From an uncultured Clostridia bacterium (GTDB lineage Bacteria > Bacillota > Clostridia > Christensenellales > UBA3700): a stretch of 64,000 bases of DNA. The stretch is taken from assembly GCA_947175555.1 (NCBI GenBank), contig CAMWNK010000002.1:19186-83185 (forward strand), in the 5' to 3' direction. The translations under genes and the position numbers were made by a program. Under the pieces are notes generated by a model. The model searched no databases and was not told the DNA's origin. It worked only from the letters and a program-made list of their open reading frames with translations. Below are positions 1 through 27,092 of the stretch, one piece after another; positions within the stretch are counted from its first letter, which is position 1; each line of letters starts with the position of its first letter.

Positions 1-817
1 CGCTGATTGCCGTAATAAATACCAAGAACAGATTGGATACACTAAAAGCAAACGATACCTTGCCGAATACAAGCTCGTCCCAACGCCACTGAATTATCAT
101 CTTGGCGCCGCCCACGATTAACAATGCAGACCAGTTGGCAAGCATGAGCAGTATTCCCGAGGAGATATTATCCTTCATCTCCTTAAAAGCGTCTTTTATC
201 TTGAGCGACTTGCCGAAATAAAGCCCTCTGTTGAATATAAAGCCGATTACTATACCGATCGCGTCGCCTATCAAGTCGGCTATGCAGTACCAGTAGAAAT
301 TATTGACCTTGCACACCAGCAATATCACGACGGTAAGTCCGTACGTAAGACGCTGCGCAATAGTCAAAATTGCGTACTTGCTTATCCTATTGGTTATCTG
401 GAACATATAAGAGCTGTACGTTACCATATTTTTGGTAATTACGGCAGCCGCTACGAGTATTAGAATATATTTATATTCCCCGCCTACGGCAAAGGCGGAT
501 ACCGTAGCCATTATCAGCGTAACCGCAGAGGTAAAAAACAGCAGTATCTTGAATTGCGAGCGCAGTCTTGCCCGCTCCAGCTCCTCGTAATCGTACTTAG
601 AATATCTCAGCACCAGTCCGTCCAGCAATCCGAAATGCAGTATCCCCACGTATCCGGCATAGAGGACGTATACCTGCCAGTACGCATACTGATACTCGTC
701 GATTATCTTGGGGACGACGAGATTGAGTATTACGCTCACTGCAAGCGATATGATCTGCGCCGTTATCGAAACGATAACGTTGGTCGCAAATTTTTTTGTA
801 GTTATTCTTTGTGCCAC
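1..817 (-). CDS. Polysaccharide flippase (Wzx / MOP-family), N-terminal part; gene continues past the window start
   Basis: My translation of the minus strand from GTG at 817 is open to position 1. It reads VAQRITTKKFATNVIVSITAQIISLAVSVILNLVVPKII..YWQVYVLYAGYVGILHFGLLDGLVLRY and is multi-TM, as expected for an oligosaccharide flippase N-terminus. The start lies 4 nt after the stop of the upstream gene. It is missing from the ORF track because no stop falls inside the window. Confidence 0.7.
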   Translation of the reverse strand, partial: MAQRITTKKFATNVIVSITAQIISLAVSVILNLVVPKIIDEYQYAYWQVYVLYAGYVGILHFGLLDGLVLRYSKYDYEELERARLRSQFKILLFFTSAVTLIMATVSAFAVGGEYKYILILVAAAVITKNMVTYSSYMFQITNRISKYAILTIAQRLTYGLTVVILLVCKVNNFYWYCIADLIGDAIGIVIGFIFNRGLYFGKSLKIKDAFKEMKDNISSGILLMLANWSALLIVGGAKMIIQWRWDELVFGKVSFAFSVSNLFLVFITAIS

Positions 818-820
818 GGT

Positions 821-1816
821 TTAATTAGCTACCTGTTTTCTCATATCTTCTATCGTCTCGGCAAACATCTCTTTGAGCCCCTTCCTTGCCTTCCAGCCCA
901 AAGCCGCAAGTTTAGCCGACGATAAATCCATCTTTAGCGTAGGCGCATACCCAAACAGCGATATATCCTGCTCCTCGATACGCACGCTGACTTTTCCTGT
1001 GCCGAAGTTGTCCGCAACAAGGCGCGCCATATCGTAAATCGAGCAATACGTGTCTTCGTTGGCGGCATTATACGCTTCGCCCGCCTTGCCGTCGAGCAAT
1101 ACGGTGAGTATCGCGTCGGTAGCGTCATCCGTAGATAGATAGTTGCGCATTGTCTCGCCCTTGGTCTTAAGCACTATGTCCCTGCCCTCGATAACGCATC
1201 TTGCAAACTCTGCAAATACGCGCTTATCATTGTAAGATACGCCCCTGCCGAACGTCTGGGTGAGCCTTACGACCTTAGCATTTACGCCGTACTGCGACGC
1301 ATACGCGGCGCACAGGCATTCACACGCCCGCTTAGCCTCGGGATAGGAAGAGCGCGCCTGCATGACGTCAAGATAAGACGCGGACGTCTCATATACCTTG
1401 TGCTCAATCGTCGGCGAGCCGTAAACTTCCATAGTGGACAGATATACCAAGCCGCGCGCATTGTTGACTTTCGCAAACTTCAATATATTCTCAGCCCCTG
1501 CAAAGATATCCGTAATGACATCGACGGGGCTGTCTATAAAATCCTTGCTTGCAGTATGCGACGCACAATGTATAATGTAATCAACGCCCATATCTTCAAT
1601 TTTCAGATTGCACACGTCGCATACGATGTAGCGCAGATTATCTTTATGTAGTCCCTCGAAAGCCTTGCGCGCTTTAAGCTCATTGCGGACTAAGGCATAT
1701 ACCGTAATAGGCTGCTCTAAGTCATAAGAAAGCAGGCGAGCTACTATATCCCTGCCTATCAATCCGCTTGCGCCGGTAACAAGGACCGACTTGCCCTTAA
1801 GACGAGATATGTCCAT
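821..1816 (-). CDS. NAD-dependent epimerase/dehydratase family (extended SDR) protein
   Basis: 331 aa. N-terminal Rossmann motif VLVTGASGLIGRDIV. GGAGG sits 9 nt upstream of the ATG. Tightly packed with the cytidylyltransferase gene. Confidence 0.8.
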   Translation of the reverse strand: MDISRLKGKSVLVTGASGLIGRDIVARLLSYDLEQPITVYALVRNELKARKAFEGLHKDNLRYIVCDVCNLKIEDMGVDYIIHCASHTASKDFIDSPVDVITDIFAGAENILKFAKVNNARGLVYLSTMEVYGSPTIEHKVYETSASYLDVMQARSSYPEAKRACECLCAAYASQYGVNAKVVRLTQTFGRGVSYNDKRVFAEFARCVIEGRDIVLKTKGETMRNYLSTDDATDAILTVLLDGKAGEAYNAANEDTYCSIYDMARLVADNFGTGKVSVRIEEQDISLFGYAPTLKMDLSSAKLAALGWKARKGLKEMFAETIEDMRKQVAN

Positions 1817-1821
1817 TACTC

Positions 1822-2550
1822 TTATTCCTCCGCGCCGTATATCTGCGCATTTTCCTTAGCTTCCAATATAGCTCTCATCGCATAATAATCGTCGGGCGTA
1901 GTAATCTTGATATTGTCGTACGGACCGTCTACCATATACAGCTTGTACCCGTATCGATTCATAAGAGTGCATGAGTCGACGGTGTCGTACACGTTGTCGC
2001 TCATCGCTTTTTCATGAGCGGTCAAGATGTCGTCAAGATAAAAGCTCTGCGGAGCCTTTGCTACACGCGAGTTATCTCTTAGAGGGACTTGCTCTACGCA
2101 ACCGTCCTTATCGGTAACAACTATCGTCTCCTTGACAATGCCCGCGGTAATAGCACTGCCGTGCGCTTTGACGCAGGCAATATTTTCGGAGAGCAACTTG
2201 CTGTTAATGAGCGGACGCACGCCGTCATGGATAAGCACGATTGCCTTCTCGCTGCCCGCAACGTCTCTTGCCGCGCACAGACCGTTATATATGGATAATT
2301 GCCCCGAGCTGCCGCCTGCGACAATCTTTCTAACCTTGGTAATCCCAAATTTATCTATCTGAGAGCGCAGATAATCTATCCACTCCTCTACGCAAGAGAT
2401 AACGACTGCGTCTATGTCCGCATTGTTCTCAAAATGTTCCAGCGTATGAATAATAATAGGCTTGCCGAAAATCTCAAGAAACTGCTTGGGCTTGTCCTTA
2501 CTGCGCATTCTACTGCCTACTCCGCCCGCAAAAATCACACCGATATTCAT
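1822..2550 (-). CDS. IspD/TarI-family nucleotidyltransferase (possible ribitol-5-phosphate or similar alditol-phosphate cytidylyltransferase)
   Basis: 242 aa. N-terminus MNIGVIFAGGVGSRM..KPKQFL is the IspD/TarI signature. ATGA overlap with the upstream gene. Confidence 0.75.
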   Translation of the reverse strand: MNIGVIFAGGVGSRMRSKDKPKQFLEIFGKPIIIHTLEHFENNADIDAVVISCVEEWIDYLRSQIDKFGITKVRKIVAGGSSGQLSIYNGLCAARDVAGSEKAIVLIHDGVRPLINSKLLSENIACVKAHGSAITAGIVKETIVVTDKDGCVEQVPLRDNSRVAKAPQSFYLDDILTAHEKAMSDNVYDTVDSCTLMNRYGYKLYMVDGPYDNIKITTPDDYYAMRAILEAKENAQIYGAEE

Positions 2551-3884
2551 TTTATTTTCCCCCGTTTAGCTCTTTTACGCCTTATGCCCGTTCCGTCGCC
2601 GCCGTATACCGCAAGATATACTGCAGTGAGCCAGAATATCTCATAAAAAAGTCCGAGATGGAACCTTCTAAACAGCTGCTCTGCTATAGGATAAAAAATT
2701 ATGGGATAAATAAGCGCGCAATACATTAGCCATGAATAGCTATATTTATTTTTCTTGGTTTTGAGATACAGCCACTCATAAAACATACCGGTAATAAAAG
2801 GAAAAATCACCATGCCGAAGCATCCGAAATCTTCTACATACGGCTTAAACGCAGAATAAATATTTGAGCTATATGTAAACCCGCTTGAAGTTGTATACTC
2901 TATGAAAGGATCAAACCTGTTGTTTTGCACAAGATCGCCGAAGTTGATCCCAATAGGCTCAAGTATGCTCTGCAATGAACCCAACAAAGTTTGAAGAGTG
3001 GACACGCCGTATTGAGGAGCGTCGTTATATGTCCCGAGCCACATGTTGAAATTGTATAATCCCGAACCGCCGTAAATGCTGAGCGAATGGAATATATCCG
3101 ATTTATATTCCTTCATCTTGCCCATGATAAAGAACACTACAACCATTAGTAAAAGCAATACCAAAACACACTGAACTATGCGCATATTTACATTGTTTTT
3201 CTTACTGTTTTCTCTTAAGAATAAAACAAAAAGACAGATAAAATAAATTGCGTATCTAAGGAAAATATTCCTATCTGTTGATACTAATACGAGCACGCCG
3301 AATGCCGCAATAGGTATAAGCAACTTGATTATACTTACTCCGTCTTTGCCTGAAAACAGTCGTTGAAACAATCTAAAAGTATTAATGTACGCGATAGCGA
3401 CAACGATTTCTCTCATCTGCACAAATATTGTACCGGGGCTGTAACCGCCAACCGTATTGTCATATATTTGTCTAAGTTTCCCTGTAATTGAAGGCACATC
3501 GGAAACAGATATAAAAAGCTTAAGAACATAGCCAAGCATGCAGATAATAGAAACTATTATAAATAGTTCTGCAGGATATCTTCTCTTAATATTAGTCTGT
3601 TTAACGGGAAGGCGCGCGTTGAGTATTGCACATGCATCTTGCTGAGGAGACAATCGTCTCACGACAGCCGCGCCCACGCCCCAAGCAAGCAATGCGCAAA
3701 GTATGAATACAATAAATGTGCCGCTGATCTTAACTTCCCACTTAGAATAATTAAGAACGACAATAAAGAAAGATGCCGTTATGGCAAGGCAAAACAAAAA
3801 CCAAGGCGAAAGTAAGTCTCTCTTGCTTATCAGATAAGCAAAAGCAACAACGATTGCAAATAGAGCCAATGCCAAAAACGCCAT
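2547..3884 (-). CDS. Polytopic membrane protein, Wzy-like O-antigen/EPS polymerase
   Basis: Many hydrophobic segments and a position inside the glycan locus. I prefer ATG at 3884 (1 nt after the GT2 stop) to the TTG at 3905 used by the ORF track. Confidence 0.5.
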   Translation of the reverse strand: MAFLALALFAIVVAFAYLISKRDLLSPWFLFCLAITASFFIVVLNYSKWEVKISGTFIVFILCALLAWGVGAAVVRRLSPQQDACAILNARLPVKQTNIKRRYPAELFIIVSIICMLGYVLKLFISVSDVPSITGKLRQIYDNTVGGYSPGTIFVQMREIVVAIAYINTFRLFQRLFSGKDGVSIIKLLIPIAAFGVLVLVSTDRNIFLRYAIYFICLFVLFLRENSKKNNVNMRIVQCVLVLLLLMVVVFFIMGKMKEYKSDIFHSLSIYGGSGLYNFNMWLGTYNDAPQYGVSTLQTLLGSLQSILEPIGINFGDLVQNNRFDPFIEYTTSSGFTYSSNIYSAFKPYVEDFGCFGMVIFPFITGMFYEWLYLKTKKNKYSYSWLMYCALIYPIIFYPIAEQLFRRFHLGLFYEIFWLTAVYLAVYGGDGTGIRRKRAKRGKIK

Positions 3885-3885
3885 A

Positions 3886-4791
3886 TCAGAACAACCCCAA
3901 CACAACTTTCATAAAAAAGCCTAAGCGACTCTCGCCCGTATAGGAGCGCAGTACCTTTCGATTTCTCAAGACAGCGAGTTTACCGCTTGCACATGCCTTG
4001 ACAAGAGGACAGTCGGAGGTGAACTCGGGAAACTTGATAAGAAGCTCTTTAGCAAGCATGCTCCTCCCGTTACGGTACTCTTTATGAAAAGCCTTCTTCA
4101 TCCTTTCTTTACATTTTTTCTTCAATCCGCCGTCATACGCGCCGACGACGTTATTGCCATGCTGACGATACTTGATAAAAGAGCGGTTATCGTAAGCAAT
4201 TCCGCCGCACAACGAGCCTACTGCTGCCACCCAGACGTCATGAATCCTATTCCTAAGCAAAGTCTTGGACGGACGGCGGCTATCATCAACCATCAACTCT
4301 CGCAATGCAGAAGTCAATACCATCGTACACCCTGCAATCATATTCTTAGACAGTATCTGTGCAGGCTCGAGATAAATATACTTCTCCTCTGCATATCTAA
4401 GCCCCATAGAGTTACCGTCTATATCAACGCACTCTTGATTGGAGCCGTAAAGCGCCTTGCCCGACTCTTGCAACAATTTAACCGCCTCTATAAGTTTATC
4501 TTCTTCCCATATATCATCTTGATCGGCAAAGGCATAATAATCATATCCCGAAGGCGCAGTATACATTAGCTCCATAAAGCTATTGCCTACGCCCACATTG
4601 TCGCAATAATAAACAGTAATTCCTCTTTCTTTAACGTAAGTATCTAATATATCTTTAGTGCTATCCGAAGAGCCGTCGTCTCTTATATACAGCGATACTT
4701 CCACGTCTTTTTGCGCAAGAATACTGTCTATCTGCTCACAGATAAACTTTTCTCCGTTATATGCGCTCATAAGTACCGCTACGCTGCTCAT
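3886..4791 (-). CDS. Glycosyltransferase family 2
   Basis: 301 aa. VAVLMSAYNGEKFICEQIDSILAQ ... RDDGSSD is the GT-A/GT2 N-terminal pattern. TAATG overlap with LicD. Confidence 0.8.
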   Translation of the reverse strand: MSSVAVLMSAYNGEKFICEQIDSILAQKDVEVSLYIRDDGSSDSTKDILDTYVKERGITVYYCDNVGVGNSFMELMYTAPSGYDYYAFADQDDIWEEDKLIEAVKLLQESGKALYGSNQECVDIDGNSMGLRYAEEKYIYLEPAQILSKNMIAGCTMVLTSALRELMVDDSRRPSKTLLRNRIHDVWVAAVGSLCGGIAYDNRSFIKYRQHGNNVVGAYDGGLKKKCKERMKKAFHKEYRNGRSMLAKELLIKFPEFTSDCPLVKACASGKLAVLRNRKVLRSYTGESRLGFFMKVVLGLF

Positions 4792-5639
4792 TACTCGTTG
4801 CTCTCCTTGTAATATGCCGTAAAAGTATGGTGCGATACGCGCTTGTCCTCAGGCGGCAACTTCATATAATCACCGTATATACTGCCTAAATACTTATCGT
4901 AAGCGGCGATTGCATTAAACTCATAATCTTCAAATGGAAGTTTGACGTAATTTGTAAAAACTTCCTGCGGCAATATTTCCTTCTCACGATATGAACCTCC
5001 CACCGCCGCGGCAAATTTAACGTTGTCGAAATCAATAGCCGAATATCTTTTAACAATAGACTCATATAGCTTGCGCTTGTTGGCAAATCTGCTCAATATA
5101 AACATGCCGAATCTGAACGGCTCGAGATACCACCCGTGTGTCTTCGAGCGGAAAAATCTCTTCCAATTAGCGGCTACTAATAGAGCCCGCTTAAACGATG
5201 TCGCTCTAAAAGTCTTAACTGCCTTATTGTACGTATTAGCTAAGCCGTCTATAACAAATACGTCAATAGATACGCCTTCCTCCTGCTCGCCTTTGCAGAT
5301 ATTATCGTCTTTAAGTACGGTATCGGGGTTATAAACCTTTGCAGACATGTCGAGATAAGACTTGTCCGTCTCGTAACTTCTCACCTTAAATGGCAAATCT
5401 TCATGCTCTATCGCATACTTGATAAAAGCATCATAATCGGGACGGGGCATCATAATATCTATATCGTCATCCCAAGGTATATAGCCTTTATGCCGAATCG
5501 CGCCGAGAAGCGTACCTCCGCCCATCGAGTATCTAAAGCCCTCTCTCTCACAGATCTCGTGTACGGAAGCAAGCAAGCGAATCTGTATACGCTTCAACTC
5601 CTCTAATCCTATCTCATTACCCGACATAATAGTTTCCAC
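4791..5639 (-). CDS. LicD-family phosphotransferase (phosphocholine or polyol-phosphate transferase family)
   Basis: 282 aa. GGTLLGAIRHKGYIPWDDDIDIMMPRPDY matches the LicD core. Start uncertain (GTG 5639 or ATG 5627). Confidence 0.8.
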   Translation of the reverse strand: METIMSGNEIGLEELKRIQIRLLASVHEICEREGFRYSMGGGTLLGAIRHKGYIPWDDDIDIMMPRPDYDAFIKYAIEHEDLPFKVRSYETDKSYLDMSAKVYNPDTVLKDDNICKGEQEEGVSIDVFVIDGLANTYNKAVKTFRATSFKRALLVAANWKRFFRSKTHGWYLEPFRFGMFILSRFANKRKLYESIVKRYSAIDFDNVKFAAAVGGSYREKEILPQEVFTNYVKLPFEDYEFNAIAAYDKYLGSIYGDYMKLPPEDKRVSHHTFTAYYKESNE

Positions 5640-5701
5640 TTTCTCCTTGTGCTACGCGGATATAATCCGCGCCCCGCTCTTCAGTTTACAAGACACCCAT
5701 G

Positions 5702-6562
5702 CTAATCAATTGCCTCTGTAAGCACCGGCGGTCTCTTGTGAATCAACTTGAAAAATACGAACTTGCGCAACCAGCTCGGCATAATACATACGATGAATTG
5801 AATAAAATTCGTTTTACTGTATTGAGCATGCGAAATAAAGCCAGTCTTGTATATCATCTTACGCGTACGCTTATATTTTTTGTAATAGCTAAGCCCTCCG
5901 CGCCGAGCTATCATGTCCCTATTAGTGCGTACTTTGCACAAATAACTGTCAATATTCATACATATTGCTCCGTGTTGCAGCATGTCCACCCACAGCATAT
6001 CGTCTTCCATAAGCGGAGCATCCTTATAGTTGCCAGACTCGAGCACCTTGCTCTTACGGAACATAACAGTAACATGATTGAACGCGCTGCGACTCTTTTG
6101 ATACTGCGCTATCTCCTCTTGAATAAGAGGCACTCTGCGCTCGGCGACAAACTCGTTCTCGTCCTCTTCAAACTCTATTATATGACCGCCGCATATATCA
6201 AGCTCGGGATTTTGCTCGAATTCTTTAAGTTGTAACTCAAATCGATTACGCACAGCGATATCGTCTGTATCCATTCGCGCGATAAGCTCGCATGAGCACT
6301 CGGGCACGCCGTGAGCGAGTGCCAATCCCAACCCCATATTAGTATTAAGCTGTATCTCTTTTATCGTGATGTCGTCGTAAGCAGAATACTTGCGAATCAC
6401 CTCTTCAAGCTCAGACGTAATTGGACCGTCCTTGACTATCACCCACTCATCTGCCTTGACTGTCTGATCGTAAATGCTTGCTAAAGCTCTGTCTAAAAAT
6501 TCAGGTCGCTCCTTGCAATACACCGACATCAATACGGAAAATTTTATCTTGTTATCGCTCAT
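5702..6562 (-). CDS. Glycosyltransferase family 2
   Basis: 286 aa. FSVLMSVYCKERPEFLDRALASIYDQT ... VKDGP ... ARMDTDD are GT2 motifs. Confidence 0.8.
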   Translation of the reverse strand: MSDNKIKFSVLMSVYCKERPEFLDRALASIYDQTVKADEWVIVKDGPITSELEEVIRKYSAYDDITIKEIQLNTNMGLGLALAHGVPECSCELIARMDTDDIAVRNRFELQLKEFEQNPELDICGGHIIEFEEDENEFVAERRVPLIQEEIAQYQKSRSAFNHVTVMFRKSKVLESGNYKDAPLMEDDMLWVDMLQHGAICMNIDSYLCKVRTNRDMIARRGGLSYYKKYKRTRKMIYKTGFISHAQYSKTNFIQFIVCIMPSWLRKFVFFKLIHKRPPVLTEAID

Positions 6563-6752
6563 TTTCTGCCCTTATACTCAACGCTGCCGCACTAGTCTAT
6601 CTTCTTTATTAGCTTTCGAAGAAAGAATTATATACACGCACGCGCATTTCGTATAATTTTATATATTATATTATCAAGTATATCACAGTAAGGAAGAATA
6701 TTGCAAGGGGCGCATATCGTTTGCCGAAAATTAATATAGCTTGTAAGTAAGA

Positions 6753-6782
6753 ATAAAAAGACGCGCAAAAACCTTGCGCGCC
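6753..6782 (-). terminator. Rho-independent terminator after the DegT and sugar-transferase unit
   Basis: Minus strand reads GGCGCGCAAGGTTTTTGCGCGTCTTTTTATTC: an 8-bp GC-rich stem followed by a T-rich tail. Confidence 0.6.
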
Positions 6783-6853
6783 TAAAGGACATATTATCAG
6801 CAATTCAATAATTAATAGCTACAACTCTATCCGTCTGCAATTTGCTTAGTTAA

Positions 6854-7456
6854 TTACTCGCAAATTACCTTACCGATAGTTTTGAAAATCAATCCTATGT
6901 CGTAGAAAAAGCCTGCTTTTTCGATATATTTCAGATTAAGCTCGAGCTTAGCGGGCATGATTTCTTGTATATATTTACTTTCCGGATCCTCGTTGCCGTC
7001 GAGCAGATCGTTCTCGTTGCGGAATTCAATAGAAGCCAAATCGGTAATACCGGGCTTGACGCTTAAAACGCGCCTCTGCTCGTCATTGTACATCGCCACA
7101 TATTTAGGCACCTCGGGACGAGGTCCTACAAAGCTCATCTGACCGATAAAGACGTTGAATAGTTGCGGAAGCTCGTCTATCTTGGTCTTGCGAATGAATT
7201 TGCCTACTTTCGTAATGCGGTTATCGCCGTCGGTAGTTATCTGCATACCCTTTGCTTCGGCATCGACTACCATAGAGCGGAACTTCATAATCTTAAAGTG
7301 CTTACCGCCTTTACCTACGCGCTCCTGCTTGAAAAGTACGGGGCCCTTTGACGAGCACTTGATAGCAATAGCCACTATTATGAATATCGGCGATAATAGC
7401 AATATGCCGAAAAACGAGCTGAACAGGTCAAAACAACGCTTGAAAAATCTATACAC
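6854..7456 (-). CDS. Small phosphoglycosyl transferase (bacterial sugar transferase, PglC/WbaP C-terminal type); initiating enzyme
   Basis: FKRCFDLFSSFFGILLLSPIFIIVAIAIK..GPVLFKQERVGKGGKHFKIMKFRSM ... DELPQLFNV ... SFVGPRP. AAGGAG sits 7 nt upstream of GTG 7456, which I prefer to TTG 7462. Confidence 0.85.
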   Translation of the reverse strand: MYRFFKRCFDLFSSFFGILLLSPIFIIVAIAIKCSSKGPVLFKQERVGKGGKHFKIMKFRSMVVDAEAKGMQITTDGDNRITKVGKFIRKTKIDELPQLFNVFIGQMSFVGPRPEVPKYVAMYNDEQRRVLSVKPGITDLASIEFRNENDLLDGNEDPESKYIQEIMPAKLELNLKYIEKAGFFYDIGLIFKTIGKVICE

Positions 7457-8645
7457 CGACAATCTCCTTGAGTTTAGCAGCTACGTACGCGACTTCCTCA
7501 TCTGTAAGCAAAGTATGCAGAGGAAGCGTTATTTCGTTACGGTATAAGTCGTAGGCATTGGGATAATCGCTTATATTAAAGCCCAACGCCTTATATCCCT
7601 CAAACATCGCAAGCGGCTTGTAATGCACGTTGGTAGCGATACCCGCCTGAGCCATTTTTGTAATTATTTCGTTGCGACGAGCCTCGTCAATGCCGAGTAT
7701 ACGCGTGATATATAGATGTCCGCTGCCGATACTATCTCTCGTATCGTGCGCTATCGGACGGATAGACGTGCCCGCAAATGCTGCGTTATACGTGGCAATA
7801 ATCTCTTTCCGTCTTGCGAGCATTCCCTCATAGCGGTTGAATTGCGCCAATCCGAGCGCGGCAGAGATATCGGTCATATTACACTTATAGCCCAGCAGCT
7901 TAATGTCGTATTCCCACGCGCCTGCCTTCATCTTGGACAAAGCGTCCTTGGATTGACCATGCAGACTGTCCAGCTTGATTTGCGAATAGATATACTCGTT
8001 GTCTATACCTGCAATATCTCTCCACGTAACGGCTCCGCCTTCCGCAGTAGTTAAATTCTTGACCGCATGGAAAGAAAACGACGTGAAGTCTGCGATTTCA
8101 CCCGAGCGTTTACCGCACCTTGTTGCGCCAAACGAATGAGCGGCATCGGCAATAATTGCCACTCTTCCAAGCGCCTTCTGCACATCGCTTGAGGGCGTAA
8201 ATAACGCTTTTTTCTCCTTAGCAATTTCGTACAGCTTATCGTAATCTGCCACCACGCCTGCAAAGTCAACGCCTATTATAGCCTTTGTCTTATCCGTAAT
8301 TGCTTTGCGGACATTATCTGCAGATATATAAAAATCATCCTTATCGGTATCTACCAATACGATTTTTGCTCCGACATGATTGATAACGCTTGCTGACGCG
8401 GTGTACGTATAAGCACTGGTGATGACCTCATCACCGGCTCCAACGCCTAAAAATCTCAAAATCAATTCCAATCCCGCGGTAGCGGAATTTAAGCATACGG
8501 CTGCGGCGGTATTGCAATACCGAGCTATTTCCCTCTCGAATTTCCCCGTCTTGGGACCTGTAGTAATCCAGCCCGATTTCAAAGTATCGACAACTTCGTC
8601 GATTTCTGCCTGCGTAATATCGGGCGGAGAGAACTTAATGTTCAT
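7449..8645 (-). CDS. DegT/DnrJ/EryC1/StrS-family sugar aminotransferase
   Basis: IKFSPPDITQAEIDEVVDTLKSGWITTGPKTGKFE ... SFHAVKNLTTAEGG (PLP lysine context). AAGGAG sits 6 nt before ATG 8645, so the ORF-track start at 8663 is probably too long. Confidence 0.85.
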   Translation of the reverse strand: MNIKFSPPDITQAEIDEVVDTLKSGWITTGPKTGKFEREIARYCNTAAAVCLNSATAGLELILRFLGVGAGDEVITSAYTYTASASVINHVGAKIVLVDTDKDDFYISADNVRKAITDKTKAIIGVDFAGVVADYDKLYEIAKEKKALFTPSSDVQKALGRVAIIADAAHSFGATRCGKRSGEIADFTSFSFHAVKNLTTAEGGAVTWRDIAGIDNEYIYSQIKLDSLHGQSKDALSKMKAGAWEYDIKLLGYKCNMTDISAALGLAQFNRYEGMLARRKEIIATYNAAFAGTSIRPIAHDTRDSIGSGHLYITRILGIDEARRNEIITKMAQAGIATNVHYKPLAMFEGYKALGFNISDYPNAYDLYRNEITLPLHTLLTDEEVAYVAAKLKEIVGV

Positions 8646-8791
8646 CGCTTGCTCCTTAATCAATTACTAATAAAGATTATATCTCATGCACGCATAAAAG
8701 ACAAGGCAAATCAATGCCGATATGTCCTGCAAAAATATTTGCGGGACTTACGCAGATATTTTTATCGACCGCTGCGAGCGGCTAACTCTGC

Positions 8792-9379
8792 TCAATACAA
8801 ATCGGCAAGTATCTCCACGCACTTATCTATACCCAGCTTGCCGCTGTCGAGGGAGATATCGTAATTTTTTGCAACTCCCCACTCCAATTCCGTATAATAG
8901 CGATAATATGCCGCGCGGCGCTTATCCTTGTCCTTAAGACGCTTAAGCGGCGCGACGTCGCTCTCTCCGTATAGCTTGACAATGCGCTCGGCTCTCGAGT
9001 TCATGTCCGCATGGATAAAGACTTTAAGAATATTGGGATTATCTTTAAGAATATAGTCGGCGCATCTGCCTATTATCACGCAAGGACCTTGCTCGGCGAG
9101 GTCGGTTATCACCTTGCGCTGCGCAATCCACAGATAATCTTGATTGGCGACTCCGTTGACAAAGTGTCCCGACAACAGAGCGTTGCCTATCCAACTGCCG
9201 TACGCCGCGTACTCGCCGTGCTCTGCGATATAGCTGTGTGCAAAACCGCTCTCCTCCGCCACCTTATCTATAAGCTCATAATCGTAACAGGGGATATTTA
9301 GTTTAGCTGCAAGCTGCCTGCCTATAGTACGTCCGCCGCTGCCGAACTCCCTGCTGACTGTAATAACTCTGTTATCCAT
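8792..9379 (-). CDS. Cytidylate kinase-like family protein (AAA/NMP-kinase fold)
   Basis: MDNRVITVSREFGSGGRTIGRQLAAKLNIPCYDYELI. AGGAGG lies upstream of ATG 9379. The extra 37 aa in the ORF track are unlikely to be translated. Confidence 0.65.
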   Translation of the reverse strand: MDNRVITVSREFGSGGRTIGRQLAAKLNIPCYDYELIDKVAEESGFAHSYIAEHGEYAAYGSWIGNALLSGHFVNGVANQDYLWIAQRKVITDLAEQGPCVIIGRCADYILKDNPNILKVFIHADMNSRAERIVKLYGESDVAPLKRLKDKDKRRAAYYRYYTELEWGVAKNYDISLDSGKLGIDKCVEILADLY

Positions 9380-9606
9380 AATCGCCCTCCTTGCGCTTAT
9401 TAATTCTTCCTTTTCATAATTATAGCGCAAATTAAGGCTTTTGTGTACATCGACCTTAAAAATCAGCTTGGGAAATAAAATGCGCATCAAATCGATGTAT
9501 ATTTATTATCCGCAATATCACGCCCTCGCTTTTGCTCTCCATACGTTGATTTACGGCTGCTACAAGGTGTATAATCTATATCAAAGAAGATAAGGAGAGA
9601 CATGAG

Positions 9607-10110
9607 ATGAAAGTCGTAAGAAAGCAAAATAACAGCAAGATGTGTATCATATGCGGCATGGAAAACGAATTGGGCGTAAAAGCTCCCTTCTACGAAATGG
9701 AAGACGGCAGCGTGCGCACGGTATTTCAATACCGCCCCGAACATCAGAGCTATCCCGAGAGAGTACACGGCGGCATGATAACGTGCATGTTGGATGAGCT
9801 GGCGGGACGCGCGATATGGACAGTAGAGCCCGACATGCTGGCAGTTACCACCAAGATAGAGGTGCGCTTCAGAAAGCCCGTACCCTATAACGAGCAACTC
9901 ATTGGCACGGCAAAACTTGTCGCCAACAGCAGACGCGGATTCTCGGCTGTTGCAAAGATAACCGACGCCGCAGGCAAATTGCTTGCCGATGCAGACGTAA
10001 CGTATCTGAAAATGCCTGCCAAACTCATATGCAACGCCGACATGGAGGAAGAGCTTGACTATCATATCGACGACGGCGTGAAAGACATCGAGCTGCCGCC
10101 CGAGGAGTGA
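9607..10110 (+). CDS. PaaI-family (hotdog fold) thioesterase
   Basis: 167 aa. CIICGMENELG ... HGGMITCMLDELAGRA. AAGGAG sits 9 nt upstream. Confidence 0.7.
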   Translation: MKVVRKQNNSKMCIICGMENELGVKAPFYEMEDGSVRTVFQYRPEHQSYPERVHGGMITCMLDELAGRAIWTVEPDMLAVTTKIEVRFRKPVPYNEQLIGTAKLVANSRRGFSAVAKITDAAGKLLADADVTYLKMPAKLICNADMEEELDYHIDDGVKDIELPPEE

Positions 10111-10283: not shown

Positions 10284-11666
10284 ATGGATTACAAAGAGTA
10301 TCAGGAAAATTTAGAAAAAAAGCACCACGCAGAGATATCGAGACTTGCCAAGCTCAACGGCAAAGGCATAGCAATCAATCCTAAGCTGTATCAGAAGTAC
10401 GACGTAAAAAGAGGACTTAGGGATATCAACGGCAACGGCGTAGTATGCGGTCTGACGGAGATATCGGAAATCATCTCGTTCAAGAAAAACGAAAGCGGAG
10501 AAAAAGTCCCCTGCCACGGCGAGTTGTATTACCGCGGATATAACGTGCGCGACCTTGTAGACGGATTTATAAAGAGGAAGAGATACGGCTTTGAAGAGTC
10601 GGCATATCTGTTGCTCTTCGGAAAACTGCCTACGGCGGAAGAGCTGACGCACTTTTCGGACATGCTGTGCGACTACAGACTGCTGCCTACCAATTTCGTG
10701 CGCGACATCATCATGAAATCCCCTTCCCGCGATATGATGAACATGCTGGCAAGGTGCGTGCTCAACCTCTACTCTTACGATAGACACGCCGATAAGATAT
10801 CGGTATCCAACGTATTGAGGCAAAGCCTGCAACTTATCGCGCGATTCCCGCTACTGACCGTATACAGCAACAACGCCTATAAGTATTACAATACCGAGTG
10901 CTCGCTGTATATTCACAAACCCGACCGCACGCTATCTACCGCAGAAAATCTGCTGTACATATTGCGCGACGACAATAAGTTTACCGAGCTTGAGGCCTTG
11001 GTGCTGGATATATGTCTTATCCTGCACGCAGAGCACGGCGGCGGCAATAACTCCACGTTTACCACACACGTAGTATCTTCTTCCGGCACGGATACCTACT
11101 CGTCCGTAGCGGCATCGCTCGGCTCGCTTAAGGGCCCCAAGCACGGCGGCGCAAACGTGAAAGTTGTGCAGATGTTCGATAATATCAAAGAAAACGTACA
11201 CGGATTCACCGACGGCAACATCCGCGATTATCTTATAAAAATCCTTGATAAAGAGGCATTCGACAAGTCGGGATTGATATACGGAATGGGACATGCCGTA
11301 TACTCGCTGTCCGATCCCAGATGCGACATATTAAAGGACTGCGCGGAGAAACTCGCCGCAGAAAAGAACATGAGCGAAGAGTTTTACCTGCACAGCCGCG
11401 TAGCGCACATAGCGGGCGAATTGATTGCCGAAAGACGCAAAATCTATAAGGGCGTAAGCCCCAACGTGGACTTCTATTCGGGACTTATATACGACATGCT
11501 CAAGCTGGACAGAGAGCTGTATACACCTTTATTTGCGGTGTCGCGCATAGCGGGATGGTCGGCTCACAGACTGGAAGAAATTGCCAGCGGCGGCAAGATA
11601 ATCCGCCCCTCTTACATTGCAATAACGGGGCGCAGAGATTACGCGCCGATAGACGAAAGGCAGTAA
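10284..11666 (+). CDS. Citrate synthase family protein (citrate/2-methylcitrate synthase)
   Basis: 460 aa. LILHAEHGGGNNSTF ... GPKHGGAN ... GMGHAVYSLSDPR ... NVDFYSG are citrate synthase signatures. A candidate TTGACA-18-TAAAAT promoter lies at 10228-10257. Confidence 0.85.
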   Translation: MDYKEYQENLEKKHHAEISRLAKLNGKGIAINPKLYQKYDVKRGLRDINGNGVVCGLTEISEIISFKKNESGEKVPCHGELYYRGYNVRDLVDGFIKRKRYGFEESAYLLLFGKLPTAEELTHFSDMLCDYRLLPTNFVRDIIMKSPSRDMMNMLARCVLNLYSYDRHADKISVSNVLRQSLQLIARFPLLTVYSNNAYKYYNTECSLYIHKPDRTLSTAENLLYILRDDNKFTELEALVLDICLILHAEHGGGNNSTFTTHVVSSSGTDTYSSVAASLGSLKGPKHGGANVKVVQMFDNIKENVHGFTDGNIRDYLIKILDKEAFDKSGLIYGMGHAVYSLSDPRCDILKDCAEKLAAEKNMSEEFYLHSRVAHIAGELIAERRKIYKGVSPNVDFYSGLIYDMLKLDRELYTPLFAVSRIAGWSAHRLEEIASGGKIIRPSYIAITGRRDYAPIDERQ

Positions 11667-17694: not shown

Positions 17695-18206
17695 TACATT
17701 ATCTCCTTATTTCTTACCTTCGGCGCTGCGCCGATACAGTATTATTTTAACATATCGGATATTACATATCAATAAATATTTTTACGCGTTATTATTAAAA
17801 TATGTTCGTGTTAACGGCTTCGATTGATGTCATAATCTAATACTTTTTTGCAAATGCGCGCGCAATGGATAATAATCAGCCATTTTATACTGAGCGCTTT
17901 CATCTGCGCAGCCGCTTTACGTAGCTTAATTACTCGCCAACTTATCGCCTTATCCATTGTGCAAACTAAGGTCTATCCCTTTGTGGTGCAAAAATATCGC
18001 ATAATAATTGATAATATCTCGATTTCGCATTATCTACTTATTGCTATACCTATAGAAGCCTTCAAGATATGATTGACCTGCGCATTATTTAACATAATCA
18101 ATACCGCGCCCACTTACATTTAGCCGTGTCAGAGGTTGAAAATAAAGCGGTTTTCTGCTATAGTTATAACAAGTTCGAAGTATTTAGGACTTATTCGGAG
18201 GAAATT

Positions 18207-18569
18207 ATGGCAAATATCAACGCGTCGTCCGAGAACTATCTCGAGACAATATTGATGCTCAAGAGCACTAAAGGCAGCGTACGCGCTATCGAAATTGCGC
18301 AAGAGCTCGGATTTTCCAAGCCCAGCGTAAGCATAGCCCTTAAGCATTTACGAGAGAGCGGACACGTTACGGTTGACAACGACGGAAGCATATCGCTGAC
18401 CGACTCGGGAAAGGAAATAGCCGCTAAAATATATGAAAGACACATCGTTTTGACGCGTTTTCTTACATCGCTGGGCGTTAGCGCGAACACAGCGGAAGAC
18501 GATGCCTGCAAAATAGAGCATATTATCAGCGCAGAAACCTTCGATTGTATAAAAAAGCAATCAACTTAA
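18207..18569 (+). CDS. DtxR/MntR-family metal-dependent transcriptional regulator
   Basis: MANINASSENYLETILMLKSTKGSVRAIEIAQELGFSKPSVSIALKHLRESGHV. GGAGG lies 6 nt upstream of ATG 18207. The ORF-track start at 18126 is probably too long. Confidence 0.8.
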   Translation: MANINASSENYLETILMLKSTKGSVRAIEIAQELGFSKPSVSIALKHLRESGHVTVDNDGSISLTDSGKEIAAKIYERHIVLTRFLTSLGVSANTAEDDACKIEHIISAETFDCIKKQST

Positions 18570-18805
18570 GGCGCAATAACCGTCTTTAAGTTGAAAATCG
18601 CAAGAATAGACACGATAGAAACGCCGCATCGGCGCATACTCGCAAGAAAAAATGCCATTAGATACGGCAAGATAGATATTTTACCTCTAAATAAGGTATC
18701 TAAACGCAGTGATAACCGCTAAAAAGCTGATTTAGATTGCATTTTACGGCTTGATTTTCCGTATAATTTTCGCATAATAACCGATATAGAAAAATGCCTT
18801 GATTT

Positions 18806-18828
18806 TGTTTCACAAACCGCGTGAAACA
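18806..18828. repeat. Inverted repeat made of the two consensus parS half-sites separated by 7 nt
   Basis: TGTTTCAC-aaaccgc-GTGAAACA. The arms are exact reverse complements and match the halves of TGTTNCACGTGAAACA. Confidence 0.5.
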
Positions 18829-19473
18829 TTGGCTGAAAAATTGCTGTTTGAGACCGTTTTTATAGCTCGAAAATATAAAAATTTCACGCCCGCACACCTA
18901 ATCATTAGTTATATAATAGAAACATTTATTCTGCTTAGGGCATATTTTAGCCTGTTTATTTCTATTTGTGGGATAATTTTGTTACACGAGGAACATTATT
19001 AATTCCGCACTACCGAGTGCACCGACAGAGACCTGCTTTCCACGACAATATGGATTGATATGAGAGGAAATCCCACATATATCGAGTGCAAAATATTAAA
19101 CTAACTAAACGGCAATTTTAATTCCGTCGCAATTTGCACTAAATCTCAAGCATTATATGCTTTAGCTAATTTGCAACTATCATACTTGATATTGCAACAC
19201 AAATCACGTCAACTCATTTAGCAATGCGTGAATAATATTATGACGCACTGCTTAACCAATGTCAATTATAATTGTTGCAATGCAATATTTTATTATCGAG
19301 TAGCACAGTGAGAATACCAACGCAGCTATACTATAGCCGCATATTACTCAACGCAACTTAAATGATTATTATCATATAACCAATGGGAATATGGCAGTAT
19401 TTAATCTGATTTCTTCTCCACAAACAGAACTATTTTATTGAGCTGTCGGATTTTTACAACCGTATAACTTACA

Positions 19474-19494
19474 GCAATGTTTCACGTAAAACAT
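19474..19494. repeat. parS-like site, copy 1 of an exact 21-nt repeat
   Basis: GCAATGTTTCACGTAAAACAT. The core at 19478-19493, TGTTTCACGTAAAACA, matches 15 of 16 positions of the Bacillota parS consensus TGTTNCACGTGAAACA. Confidence 0.6.
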
Positions 19495-20619
19495 ATTGTT
19501 ACAAGCCTATTTACAGCTCAGCTTTGGGCACTATTTCAAACTTATGCGCTTTGTATTAAATTGCCGACTACAGGTATTAGTTAGTCTTGCAAGCAAGCGA
19601 TAAGAGCGTATTTATATATTATTGCCCATATCTTAAGATGTATAACCGTGCTTTTATCCGATAGAGTTTGATTGCCGCTGCATACTGCGCCCGAAGCAAT
19701 ATAGACTTCCAACTCTTACTCTATACAATGGGAATAGTCTGTCGATTATCAACTAAAGATTGGCTACTTCGATATACTAATCGAAAAGGCTGTTTTATAT
19801 ATAACATTAATTAAATACCGCCGAAAACCTATCATATAGCTATATAAGTGCATTTTTTTATGCTTATATCTGTCGCACGCCTTATACGCCGCACGCCAAT
19901 CGCAGCACGTTTACCGATAACTTATTTGTTCCATTCTTAGGCAATATCGATACAGCGCGCCATTTATATAGACATAAGCAGGGCAATATATTATCATCTT
20001 TTAGACAAACACCCTTGTCTTAATTTAGATAGAGTATTTATTATGGATATATGATAAGTTTAGAAGCGCGCAATGGTAGCACGTTAATTTGGTATGCTGC
20101 CACATTGATTTGTTATTAATAATAGTTTTAAGTAGATAAATCGATAATTTATATGGCTTTTCTCAACTTGTGTACCAATATCAGATACAAAAGCGCAACA
20201 TATTCTTGATTATAGACAATCACACGTTTTCACAATGGAGATTTATTTTTATGACTATATTTCTATTAAGTTTATCGACGCGCTTTACTGTCAATCAATG
20301 GCATTAGAGATATTTATCAAGAAAATCATTGCCGCCCGCAAATTTGAAGGCTTTAACGCAATAGATATGCTTAAGTATAGTTGTTTCGTTCGATTTATAT
20401 CATTTATTAGCATAATGCGCATTGATTTTTCAAGCGATCATCTTACATCATGATATAAAGCGCATCTGCAGATCGAATATGTGCGTAATATCATTAAGCG
20501 ATAACTATGCAATTCATATTAATTTATTAATTATCTATACAAATTACCCCGTATTGCCACCGTAATAAGTTTTACTTGGTGTAATTTGATACTTGAATAA
20601 TAAATATCTTTCTTTTTTG

Positions 20620-20640
20620 GCAATGTTTCACGTAAAACAT
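20620..20640. repeat. parS-like site, copy 2 of the exact 21-nt repeat
   Basis: Identical 21-mer GCAATGTTTCACGTAAAACAT in the same orientation, 1146 bp from copy 1. The core lies at 20624-20639. Confidence 0.6.
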
Positions 20641-20894
20641 TCTCGGCGGTTATAGAGCGTAGATATTTTTCTTTTTACACGCTTGCATGACAACCTCCGT
20701 TGTCTTATATGCTCTTTTACTAATCTACAAGGCTTTTTATTATAAATCGGATATAATCGCGACGTCGCCAAGCGTCAAACACTTTCTTGACTATTGTTTT
20801 ATTATACTTTAATTACTTATACATCTTAAGCACAGTTTATTACTATAGTCGGCAGCGACTGAGAACAGTAATTAATAAGGTTGCTTTTTAAGAT

Positions 20895-20923
20895 TTTAAT
20901 AATTATCAAAGATAATTATTAAA
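20895..20923. repeat. 29-bp perfect AT-only palindrome inside an A+T-rich tract (roughly 90% A+T)
   Basis: TTTAATAATTATC-aaa-GATAATTATTAAA: 13-bp arms with a 3-nt spacer. The surrounding 20886-20960 has about 8 G/C in about 75 nt by my count. Confidence 0.6.
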
Positions 20924-21169
20924 TTTTATTTTTTATGTTGATATCTATCGATTTTATTTATCGCTGTTTACGCATATTTTAGTCTTATTTGCCTTGCAAC
21001 TAATTTGTTATATTTCAGTCTCGATTGCGACCGATTGTCGATATGATTATTTTTATCCTTTAAGTGCGCATAGAAAGTTTATTATGTGCTCATCGCGTCA
21101 ACAATGTAATCGCCGCGCCCTGCGCAGTCTGAAGTCTTTTATATATAATATTATTAAAAGATTATTTAC

Positions 21170-21199
21170 TTGACAGCAAGGCGAGCCTTATATTATACT
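21170..21199 (+). promoter_or_regulatory. Sigma-A-type promoter for rpmH-rnpA
   Basis: TTGACA (21170-21175), 18-nt spacer, TATACT (21194-21199), 35 nt upstream of the rpmH ATG. Confidence 0.6.
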
Positions 21200-21234
21200 G
21201 TTTTAGCTATTATTAAAAGAGAGGGCTAAAGGAT

Positions 21235-21369
21235 ATGAAGAGAACTTATCAACCCAAAAAGAGACAGCGCAGCAAGGTGCACGGTTTCCGCAAGAGAATG
21301 TCCACCAAGGGTGGCAGGAACGTAATCGCACGCCGCCGCAACAAGGGCAGAAAGCAGCTGAGCGCGTAA
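21235..21369 (+). CDS. rpmH: 50S ribosomal protein L34
   Basis: My translation: [44 protein letters not shown] (44 aa). GAGGG RBS upstream. Below the ORF-track size cutoff. Confidence 0.95.
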
Positions 21370-26730: not shown

Positions 26731-27092
26731 GGGCCTGTCTCGGCTTCGACGGGGAAGGGAGGGCAGTGTAAGCATACCGGAGGCTCGTCTCCGCAAATAC
26801 GGAAATTAAAATTAAACGCAGAAAATAAAACCGAGAGCTACAACGGCTCTCTTGCCTTCGCAGCTTAATTTAGCAAGGCTGTCGGCTGAAGTTTCCACGG
26901 CTTCATTACCGGCATCGGACTAGTGGAACAGGGCGCGTCGCTATGCCCAAGGCAACGCGCAAGACTTTTGGGCTTGCCAAAAGGCGAGTTTGCCGCTTAA
27001 CTCGCCCAAGGGAGATTGATAATCGGCTAAGTATGTAGAAAACGCTGTGCAAAGTTTCTCGGACAGGGGTTCGATTCCCCTCAGGTCCACCA
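26731..27092 (+). ncRNA. ssrA: tmRNA (SsrA), one-piece
   Basis: The 5' GGGCCUG pairs with the 3' CAGGUCC-ACCA, giving an acceptor stem with a G3:U pair. The T-arm is GGGGTTCGATTCCCC. The tag reading frame runs from GCA 26818 to TAA 26866-26868 and encodes AENKTESYNGSLAFAA. Confidence 0.95.

Follow-up and report, generated by a model that had tools for sequence, protein, structure and literature searches.

What is a stretch of 2665 nt without a credible gene doing directly upstream of rpmH? The question is raised by positions 18570-21234 of a 64-kb stretch of DNA (the window) from an uncultured Clostridia bacterium, a tract referred to below as the gap. Its guanine-plus-cytosine (GC) content is 0.335, against ~0.45-0.50 in the flanks, and it is the largest intergenic stretch in the 101.7 kb of contig that were analysed, the runner-up being 1.2 kb long and containing the gene for transfer-messenger RNA (tmRNA). 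An earlier inspection of the letters alone (the sequence-only reading) was right about the missing genes and the AT-richness, and proposed an atypical replication origin separated from dnaA, a large non-coding RNA, or a decayed remnant or other unrecognised element; the parS-like sites of the gap, which are the main subject here, are absent from it. It appears moderately likely that the gap is a centromere-like parS cluster, with three parS-like sites and one split site within 1.8 kb, embedded in a neutrally drifting spacer, and that it is not an origin.

The contig context corresponds to window coordinates -9.2 kb to +92.5 kb and was read on JAIDXL010000053.1 (GCA_029058825.1), a contig of 121,673 nt, via exact-protein matches. 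The relatives used for comparison are Christensenellales-like metagenome-assembled genomes (MAGs), whose loci are cited by L numbers. They comprise a sister species (L001-L007, L045-L050), the genes of which are ~82-83% identical to those of the window, with a difference of 0.44 at 4-fold sites (Jukes-Cantor distance 0.65), and more distant genera (L008-L013), in which YidC identity is 57-62%.

parS-like sites in the gap

In Bacillota, TGTTNCACGTGAAACA is reportedly the consensus of parS, the centromere site of ParB (Spo0J). A search of the 64-kb window for this consensus, allowing at most two mismatches, returned three matches where 0.05 were expected, and all three, starting at 18980, 19478 and 20624, lie inside the gap. 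Over the whole 101.7 kb, parS-like sites are found exclusively in the gap: two with one mismatch, one with two mismatches, and one split palindrome. All four occurrences of the half-site GTGAAAC in the same 101.7 kb also fall there. The half-site GTGAAACA occurs four times in the gap against an expectation of 0.04, and it is the only enriched k-mer that the gaps of both species have in common. Avoidance of the half-site outside the gap, where none was observed and Markov models expect 2-3, is not significant.

From left to right, the first of these elements is the split palindrome TGTTTCAC-AAACCGC-GTGAAACA (18806-18828), composed of two perfect half-sites around a conserved 7-nt spacer; half-sites and spacer alike are preserved in five genera. 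To our knowledge, a split parS palindrome with a conserved 7-nt insert has no earlier description. It is followed by a degenerate site, TGTTACACGAGGAACA (18980-18995), with two mismatches, the counterpart of which in other genera, TGTTACACGGGAAACA, has one. The third, TGTTTCACGTAAAACA (19478-19493), has a single mismatch, lies within a 21-nt exact repeat, GCAATGTTTCACGTAAAACAT (19474-19494), and is identical at the equivalent place in the sister species. The second copy of the repeat (20620-20640) carries the last site (20624-20639), again with one mismatch, and at the equivalent place the sister species has TGTTTCACGTTAAACA. One parS half-site is consistently mutated at the same position. The parS-like sites keep their places both in the sister species and across other genera, while their flanks diverge at the rate of 4-fold sites.

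A ParB-family protein, encoded 51 kb away directly downstream of dnaA, would nucleate on these sites, where it may build the complex that partitions the origin-proximal domain and loads SMC; the DNA between the sites would then be filler.

A drifting spacer with conserved islands

In a global alignment with the sister species the gap is ~50% identical, as the 4-fold-site difference of 0.44 predicts. Within the sister clade, gap and 4-fold-site divergence are 0.067 and 0.084 in one comparison and 0.026 and 0.022 in another. Since the gap diverges as 4-fold sites do, most of its length is free of constraint. Conservation is seen in islands: the parS-like sites and the split palindrome, the promoter of rpmH, and the beginning of the region upstream of a SIS-domain gene. 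The counterpart gap of the sister species is 2.93 kb long, with a GC content of 0.34, and is present in six independent assemblies; it is therefore not an assembly artefact. No blastn match for the gap was obtained in plasmid or phage collections that would point to a mobile-element source, and the periodicity of A-tracts (10-11 nt) in the gap is not significant.

The large non-coding RNA proposed earlier finds no support in these data. No Rfam family was found for the gap, whether the scans of gap and window used gathering scores or E-values, and a gathering scan of seven related loci was likewise empty; the tract diverges neutrally, and the consensus fold (-1 kcal/mol) pairs only DNA palindromes.

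A non-coding module shared across genera

The two leftmost sites belong to a non-coding module of ~230 nt (18770-19002, plus strand), which consists of the split parS, a -10-like element (18908-18921) and the degenerate parS. Alignment across genera (alignments A1 and A2, of L001, L008, L010, L012 and L013, together with blastn islands against the sister species) gives the consensus GTTYCAC-AAAYNNC-GTGAAAC, the -10-like TTATAWAAWAG, and TGTTACACG(G/A)G(A/G)AACA. The module has no conserved reading frame and no RNA consensus structure beyond its palindromes. A scan of metagenome contigs with the split palindrome produced 28 matches, five of which have the second site at the right distance; besides the aligned loci, the module is present in L026, L029, L033 and L039.

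The layout of L026 is that of the window, with the module, a 3.6-kb tract poor in open reading frames (ORFs) that bears three parS-like sites, and then rpmH. In L008-L013 the gene of a UvrD-type helicase separates rpmH from the ORF-poor tract, which is 1.3-4.8 kb long and bears parS-like sites, and in L010 mntR is retained at the far side of the tract. In L033 the module stands immediately after dnaA-oriC-dnaN, the dnaA and dnaN genes being confirmed by Pfam, which points to an origin-region element by ancestry; judging from this neighbourhood, the locus as a whole probably descends from an ancestral origin region.

ORF-poor tracts with parS-like sites, of 2.7-4.8 kb and with a GC content of 0.44-0.51, lie at ~620-5415 in L010, ~3800-6500 in L008, ~3900-6660 in L012 and ~1470-5075 in L026. 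Given this near-normal GC content, the AT-richness is specific to the genus of the window, and the gene-free tract family-wide. The module site of the relatives (e.g., L008 121-136) reads TGTTACAC|GGGAAACA, one half being parS-like and the other half Noc-box-like.

Could the conserved module, or the gap as a whole, conceal a protein-coding gene or pseudogene, read through frameshifts or an alternative code? The most suggestive observation is that the 67-aa ORF 18799-19002 matches the sister species by tblastn with E = 2e-10. The match, however, mirrors the conserved DNA of the module, and neither the sister species nor other genera keep the frame open; small conserved ORFs were rejected on these grounds. 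At a length of at least 60 aa the gap holds only three ORFs (18700-18897 on the minus strand, 18799-19002 and 20235-20453 on the plus strand), all of them of low complexity and all already listed in the sequence-only reading. A six-frame translation of the gap has no Pfam match at E<=1. TAA, TAG and TGA all recur in the gap, which the sequence-only reading had noted for one plus frame, where reassigning a single stop codon rescues no gene, and the flanking genes use the standard code. Searches by tblastn with the flanking proteins of relatives and with DnaA and DnaN from L033 find nothing in the gap, and those with all ORF fragments from the relatives' flanks matched the MntR gene alone, with no frameshifted gene remnants in the gap. 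A hidden gene is therefore extremely improbable. A decayed UvrD-like helicase gene in the gap was also considered and rejected: in the relatives the gene lies between rpmH and the tract, and no remnant is present here.

An AT-only palindrome ahead of rpmH

Towards its right end the gap contains a perfect palindrome made up of A and T only, with 13-nt arms at 20895-20907 and 20911-20923, followed by a T-run (20895-20937 in all, plus strand). In both species this is the AT-richest 80 nt of the gap, with a GC content of 0.10-0.125 and a conserved position. At a matching distance from the last parS (271 vs 274 nt) the sister species also carries a perfect palindrome, 16 nt long and of another sequence, in which L001 and L003 differ by a compensatory A/T swap that preserves the pairing. 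As RNA, the hairpin has a free energy of -10.4 to -12.4 kcal/mol (z -2.4 to -4.2). Its stem consists of A-T pairs throughout, and it is absent from the calls of the terminator scan. Lying ~300 nt before rpmH, palindrome and T-run most likely act as a hairpin, which could protect the rpmH promoter, as a terminator or insulator, against transcription across the spacer, or could extrude as a cruciform.

The palindrome also lends itself to an explanation in which the promoter of the module drives a long non-coding transcript or leader that ends at the AT hairpin, so that the function of the locus is transcription itself or a small RNA. Such a transcription unit would account for the conservation of the -10-like element across genera and for the plus-strand hairpin with its T-run, its conserved position and its compensatory change, and promoter-like sites in the region are more numerous than expected from shuffling (29 vs 17). 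On the other hand, the module has no clear -35 element, the all-A-T stem differs from typical intrinsic terminators and leaves the terminator scan silent, and the body of the supposed transcript is unconstrained, with no Rfam family and no consensus RNA structure. Taken together, these observations make a transcription unit quite improbable.

Alternatively, the entire locus could be a non-functional relic, the scar of an ancestral origin or of decayed insertions, with parS-like sites that are leftovers no protein uses. Roughly 90% of the tract changes as fast as neutral DNA, no parS is perfect, tract length among relatives ranges from 0.3 to 4.8 kb, and the gene order of the origin region is heavily rearranged in this lineage, all of which a relic would explain. 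It would not explain why genera with a YidC identity of only 57-62% have the parS-like sites, the module and the split palindrome including its spacer in common when the surroundings are saturated with change, nor why the symmetry of the palindrome is kept through sequence turnover, including the compensatory swap. Furthermore, no gene remnants were detected, and ~2.7-2.9 kb have been retained in both species across 0.65 substitutions per 4-fold site despite deletion bias. A mere relic is unlikely. The earlier suggestion of a decayed remnant or unrecognised element thus holds in so far as the gap is mostly unconstrained spacer, and falls short in having missed the parS cluster, the cross-genera module and the compensated palindrome.

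Is the gap a replication origin?

The oriC of Bacillota is said to lie in the rpmH-dnaA-dnaN region and to combine DnaA boxes, DnaA-trios and an AT-rich unwinding element. In the gap, TTATNCACA occurs five times with one mismatch or better, against 4.95 expected (P = 0.57), and never perfectly. The absence of a perfect box had been noted before; the count of four one-mismatch matches missed the one at 20210, and the rough chance estimate of about two was too low. Across the 102 kb no 500-nt window stands out as a cluster of TTATCCACA-like boxes. Of a DnaA-trio array the gap offers only two 2-mismatch (YTA)5 matches, without adjoining boxes, and the window-wide count is at chance. The position-conserved 80-nt AT-rich element is the perfect palindrome described above, with no boxes or trios nearby. 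The dnaA-dnaN spacer of L033 served as positive control, and there TTATCTACA, TTATCCACA, TATCCAC, GGGG, (ATT)4 and an A-rich stretch form a textbook Bacillota oriC, with the trio-type array TTATCCACATATCCACGGGG(ATT)4.

Strand asymmetry provides a separate line of evidence. Gene orientation diverges at the gap, as the sequence-only reading had observed, except that a citrate synthase gene (10284-11666) and the MntR-like gene, both on the left, are on the plus strand. With the logic of PMC2099444, replication-type asymmetry was separated from the effects of gene orientation. On the coding strand, the minus genes to the left have a GC skew of 0.133, the minus genes to the right 0.135 and the plus genes to the right 0.032. 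Left-minus and right-plus genes, both of which would be leading-strand if the origin were in the gap, differ in skew (p = 2e-9), a contrast also seen at third-codon positions and at 4-fold sites. For the 82 genes of the 102 kb, a uniform asymmetry (r = -0.049, p = 5e-12) leaves a residual sum of squares (RSS) of 0.239, and models with a flip fit worse, at 0.404 for a flip at the gap and 0.354 for one upstream of dnaA. Fitted freely to the left and to the right of the gap, the asymmetry has the same sign and size (r_left = -0.055, r_right = -0.047). Nothing is left of the origin signal after this separation of skew from gene orientation.

Throughout the 102 kb the minus strand is rich in G, and from this an origin to the right of the gap was predicted before dnaA was found there. 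The same reading places the rpmH operon and 36 other plus-strand genes head-on to replication. Such an arrangement is unusual for Bacillota. By composition, rpmH-rnpA-yidC-jag and the tmRNA gene look lagging-strand, and only 55% of genes run with the inferred fork. L008-L013 and L052 have the opposite polarity relative to the rpmH operon, which implies that the region has been rearranged.

The gap could nonetheless be an atypical origin, poor in or independent of DnaA boxes and separated from dnaA, with the AT palindrome region as its unwinding element. Its divergent gene orientation and the classical origin neighbour rpmH would agree with this, as would the AT-richness with its position-conserved 80-nt element, the presence of parS sites, the link of the module to the true oriC of L033, and the lack of any rival cluster of DnaA boxes in 102 kb, including the region upstream of dnaA. 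However, boxes are at chance level and trios are missing, even though domain IV of the DnaA encoded on the contig is canonical; the asymmetry keeps its sign and nearly its size across the gap, where the flip model fits poorly; and a species at a distance of 0.65 substitutions per 4-fold site has the same arrangement, so that skew should have had time to adjust. With dnaA itself 51.5 kb away, an origin in the gap, as originally suggested, is very improbable. Divergent orientation beside rpmH, AT-richness and a long gap are, in combination, insufficient to call an origin.

dnaA, parB and broken synteny

The window lacks dnaA and dnaN, as stated in the sequence-only reading and confirmed by tblastn. 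On the same contig, dnaA lies at 72773-74134 in window coordinates (minus strand), 51.5 kb to the right of the gap. The protein passes the equivalog model and has the canonical box-reading motif of domain IV, GGRDHTTIIHARDKI, so that canonical boxes are to be expected in a real oriC of this genome. Directly downstream of dnaA is parB, with gyrA and gyrB further on, the dnaA-parB pair spanning ~71817-74134 (L051 18364-20681). Thus dnaA is followed by parB and not by dnaN, and a dnaA-parB-(AATase-like)-ROK block is found in another genus as well (L052). Neither tblastn nor gene lists revealed dnaN in the 102 kb. An oriC immediately upstream of dnaA was considered and rejected, since in two genera the region has no boxes and no skew flip.

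The ParB protein (L051 19821-20681) contains ParB_N and HTH_ParB domains and a GERRYRA motif, and scores 192 bits on TIGR00180, the cut-off of which is 58 bits. In all, rpmH, dnaA, parB, gyrBA, mnmEG-rsmG and recF lie within 62 kb. The minus-strand segment 42603-47665 is a co-linear mnmE-mnmG-rsmG-recF, in which recF (an equivalog match) is joined to the gid cluster. The usual arrangement of recF is dnaA-dnaN-recF-gyrB. Upstream of dnaA in L052, which belongs to the species of L011, positions 1-9836 encode a TraG/VirD4-type coupling protein, T5orf172/ResIII and a radical SAM protein, and these genes of conjugative or mobile-element type leave an intergenic region of only 165 nt before dnaA.

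Borders and neighbouring features

The left border of the gap is the gene of an MntR/DtxR-family repressor (18207-18569, plus strand), with the Pfam domains Fe_dep_repress and Fe_dep_repr_C; its start is probably at 18207. The right border is rpmH (21235-21369, plus strand), which according to the gene calls leads rpmH-rnpA-yidD-yidC-jag-radC-birA. The promoter and leader of rpmH (21142-21234, plus strand) are conserved, with 91% identity to the sister species by blastn, and comprise TTGACA-18-TATACT at 21170-21199, identified by promoter scan, and a Shine-Dalgarno sequence.

On the far side of the MntR-like gene, the 114 nt directly upstream of the minus-strand SIS-domain gene (17695-17808) share 88% identity with the sister species, much more than neutral drift would leave. 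This segment is probably the promoter or leader of that gene. It matched no Rfam family at gathering score in the whole-window scan, the permissive E-value scan having begun only at 18000. The second-largest intergenic gap holds the tmRNA gene (26731-27092, plus strand), recognised by Rfam with 153 bits and by ARAGORN with the tag peptide AENKTESYNGSLAFAA. Sister-species contigs (L007, L046, L048-L050) are ~137-140 kb long, and those of L007 and L048, which were checked in detail, end at ~-24 kb and ~+115 kb, which suggests repeats, possibly rRNA operons, at both ends.

Weight and meaning of the parS reading

Several points count against the gap being a ParB-bound parS cluster outside the origin. 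None of its parS sites is perfect, and the strongest two have their mismatch within the central CACGTG core. The NCBIfam Noc model gives the ParB protein 254 bits, less than its cut-off of 315 but more than the general ParB model does, which makes the DNA specificity of the protein uncertain, and the 102 kb showed no parA. The parS reading offers no reason for the persistence of 2.7-2.9 kb of neutral DNA (1.3-4.8 kb in relatives) against deletion bias. As for the origin, gene orientation does diverge at the gap, the skew argument presumes that strand asymmetry is driven by replication, and the asymmetry passes without a flip at dnaA too, both in the genus of the window and in that of L011. The true oriC was not found in the 102 kb and would lie beyond +92.5 kb or on another contig, so that the term origin-proximal rests on synteny and not on a measured distance.

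In a bolder proposal, the Christensenellales-like family would possess a gene-free "regional centromere", in which the kilobase-scale non-coding spacing around a conserved parS module with its split parS is itself selected, and dnaA, paired with parB, would have become uncoupled from oriC. Despite its neutral drift, the tract could serve as a transcription-free platform for the accumulation of ParB clamps and for SMC loading. The proposal as a whole is rather unlikely.

Clusters of parS are already well known. What is unusual here is that the predicted sites are packed into one gene-free, kilobase-scale tract that persists across genera, together with a split parS, a compensated palindrome and a dnaA-parB pair. 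If the parS reading is true, an uncultured gut lineage concentrates its centromere sites, including a split variant, in one long gene-free tract, and would offer a natural case for asking whether transcription-free DNA aids the loading or spreading of ParB. In this family the rpmH-oriC-dnaA-dnaN synteny is split into rpmH with the parS tract, dnaA-parB, and dnaN elsewhere, and such broken synteny bears on automated origin prediction and on growth estimates of the peak-to-trough ratio (PTR) type in MAGs.

Comparison with known systems

With the oriC of Bacillota the gap shares the neighbour rpmH, AT-richness and divergent flanking genes, and a related module stands beside a textbook oriC in L033. 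Unlike such an oriC, it has no DnaA-box cluster, no trios, no adjacent dnaA or dnaN and no switch of skew. The palindrome before rpmH resembles Rho-independent terminators and cruciform-forming palindromes in being a perfect hairpin with a following T-run and a compensatory change, and differs from them in its stem of A-T pairs only.

The gap also resembles the parS/ParB system of Bacillota: the same 16-bp palindrome, with one or two mismatches, is present in several copies near origin-associated genes, and a protein with ParB_N and HTH_ParB is encoded nearby. No site here is a perfect match, however, and one is a split palindrome. In Bacillus subtilis the parS sites are scattered, mostly intragenic, over hundreds of kilobases, whereas here four elements lie within 1.8 kb of gene-free spacer. 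In Corynebacterium glutamicum, ParB and SMC are loaded at a cluster of 10 parS sites, most of them intergenic, that lies 73 kb from oriC and to one side of it (PMC7083940). The gap is similar to this cluster in that its sites are intergenic and grouped, there in a one-sided position 73 kb from oriC; the ten sites of C. glutamicum, however, are spread between genes over 35 kb (PMC7083940), while the sites predicted here are packed into a single 2.7-kb tract.

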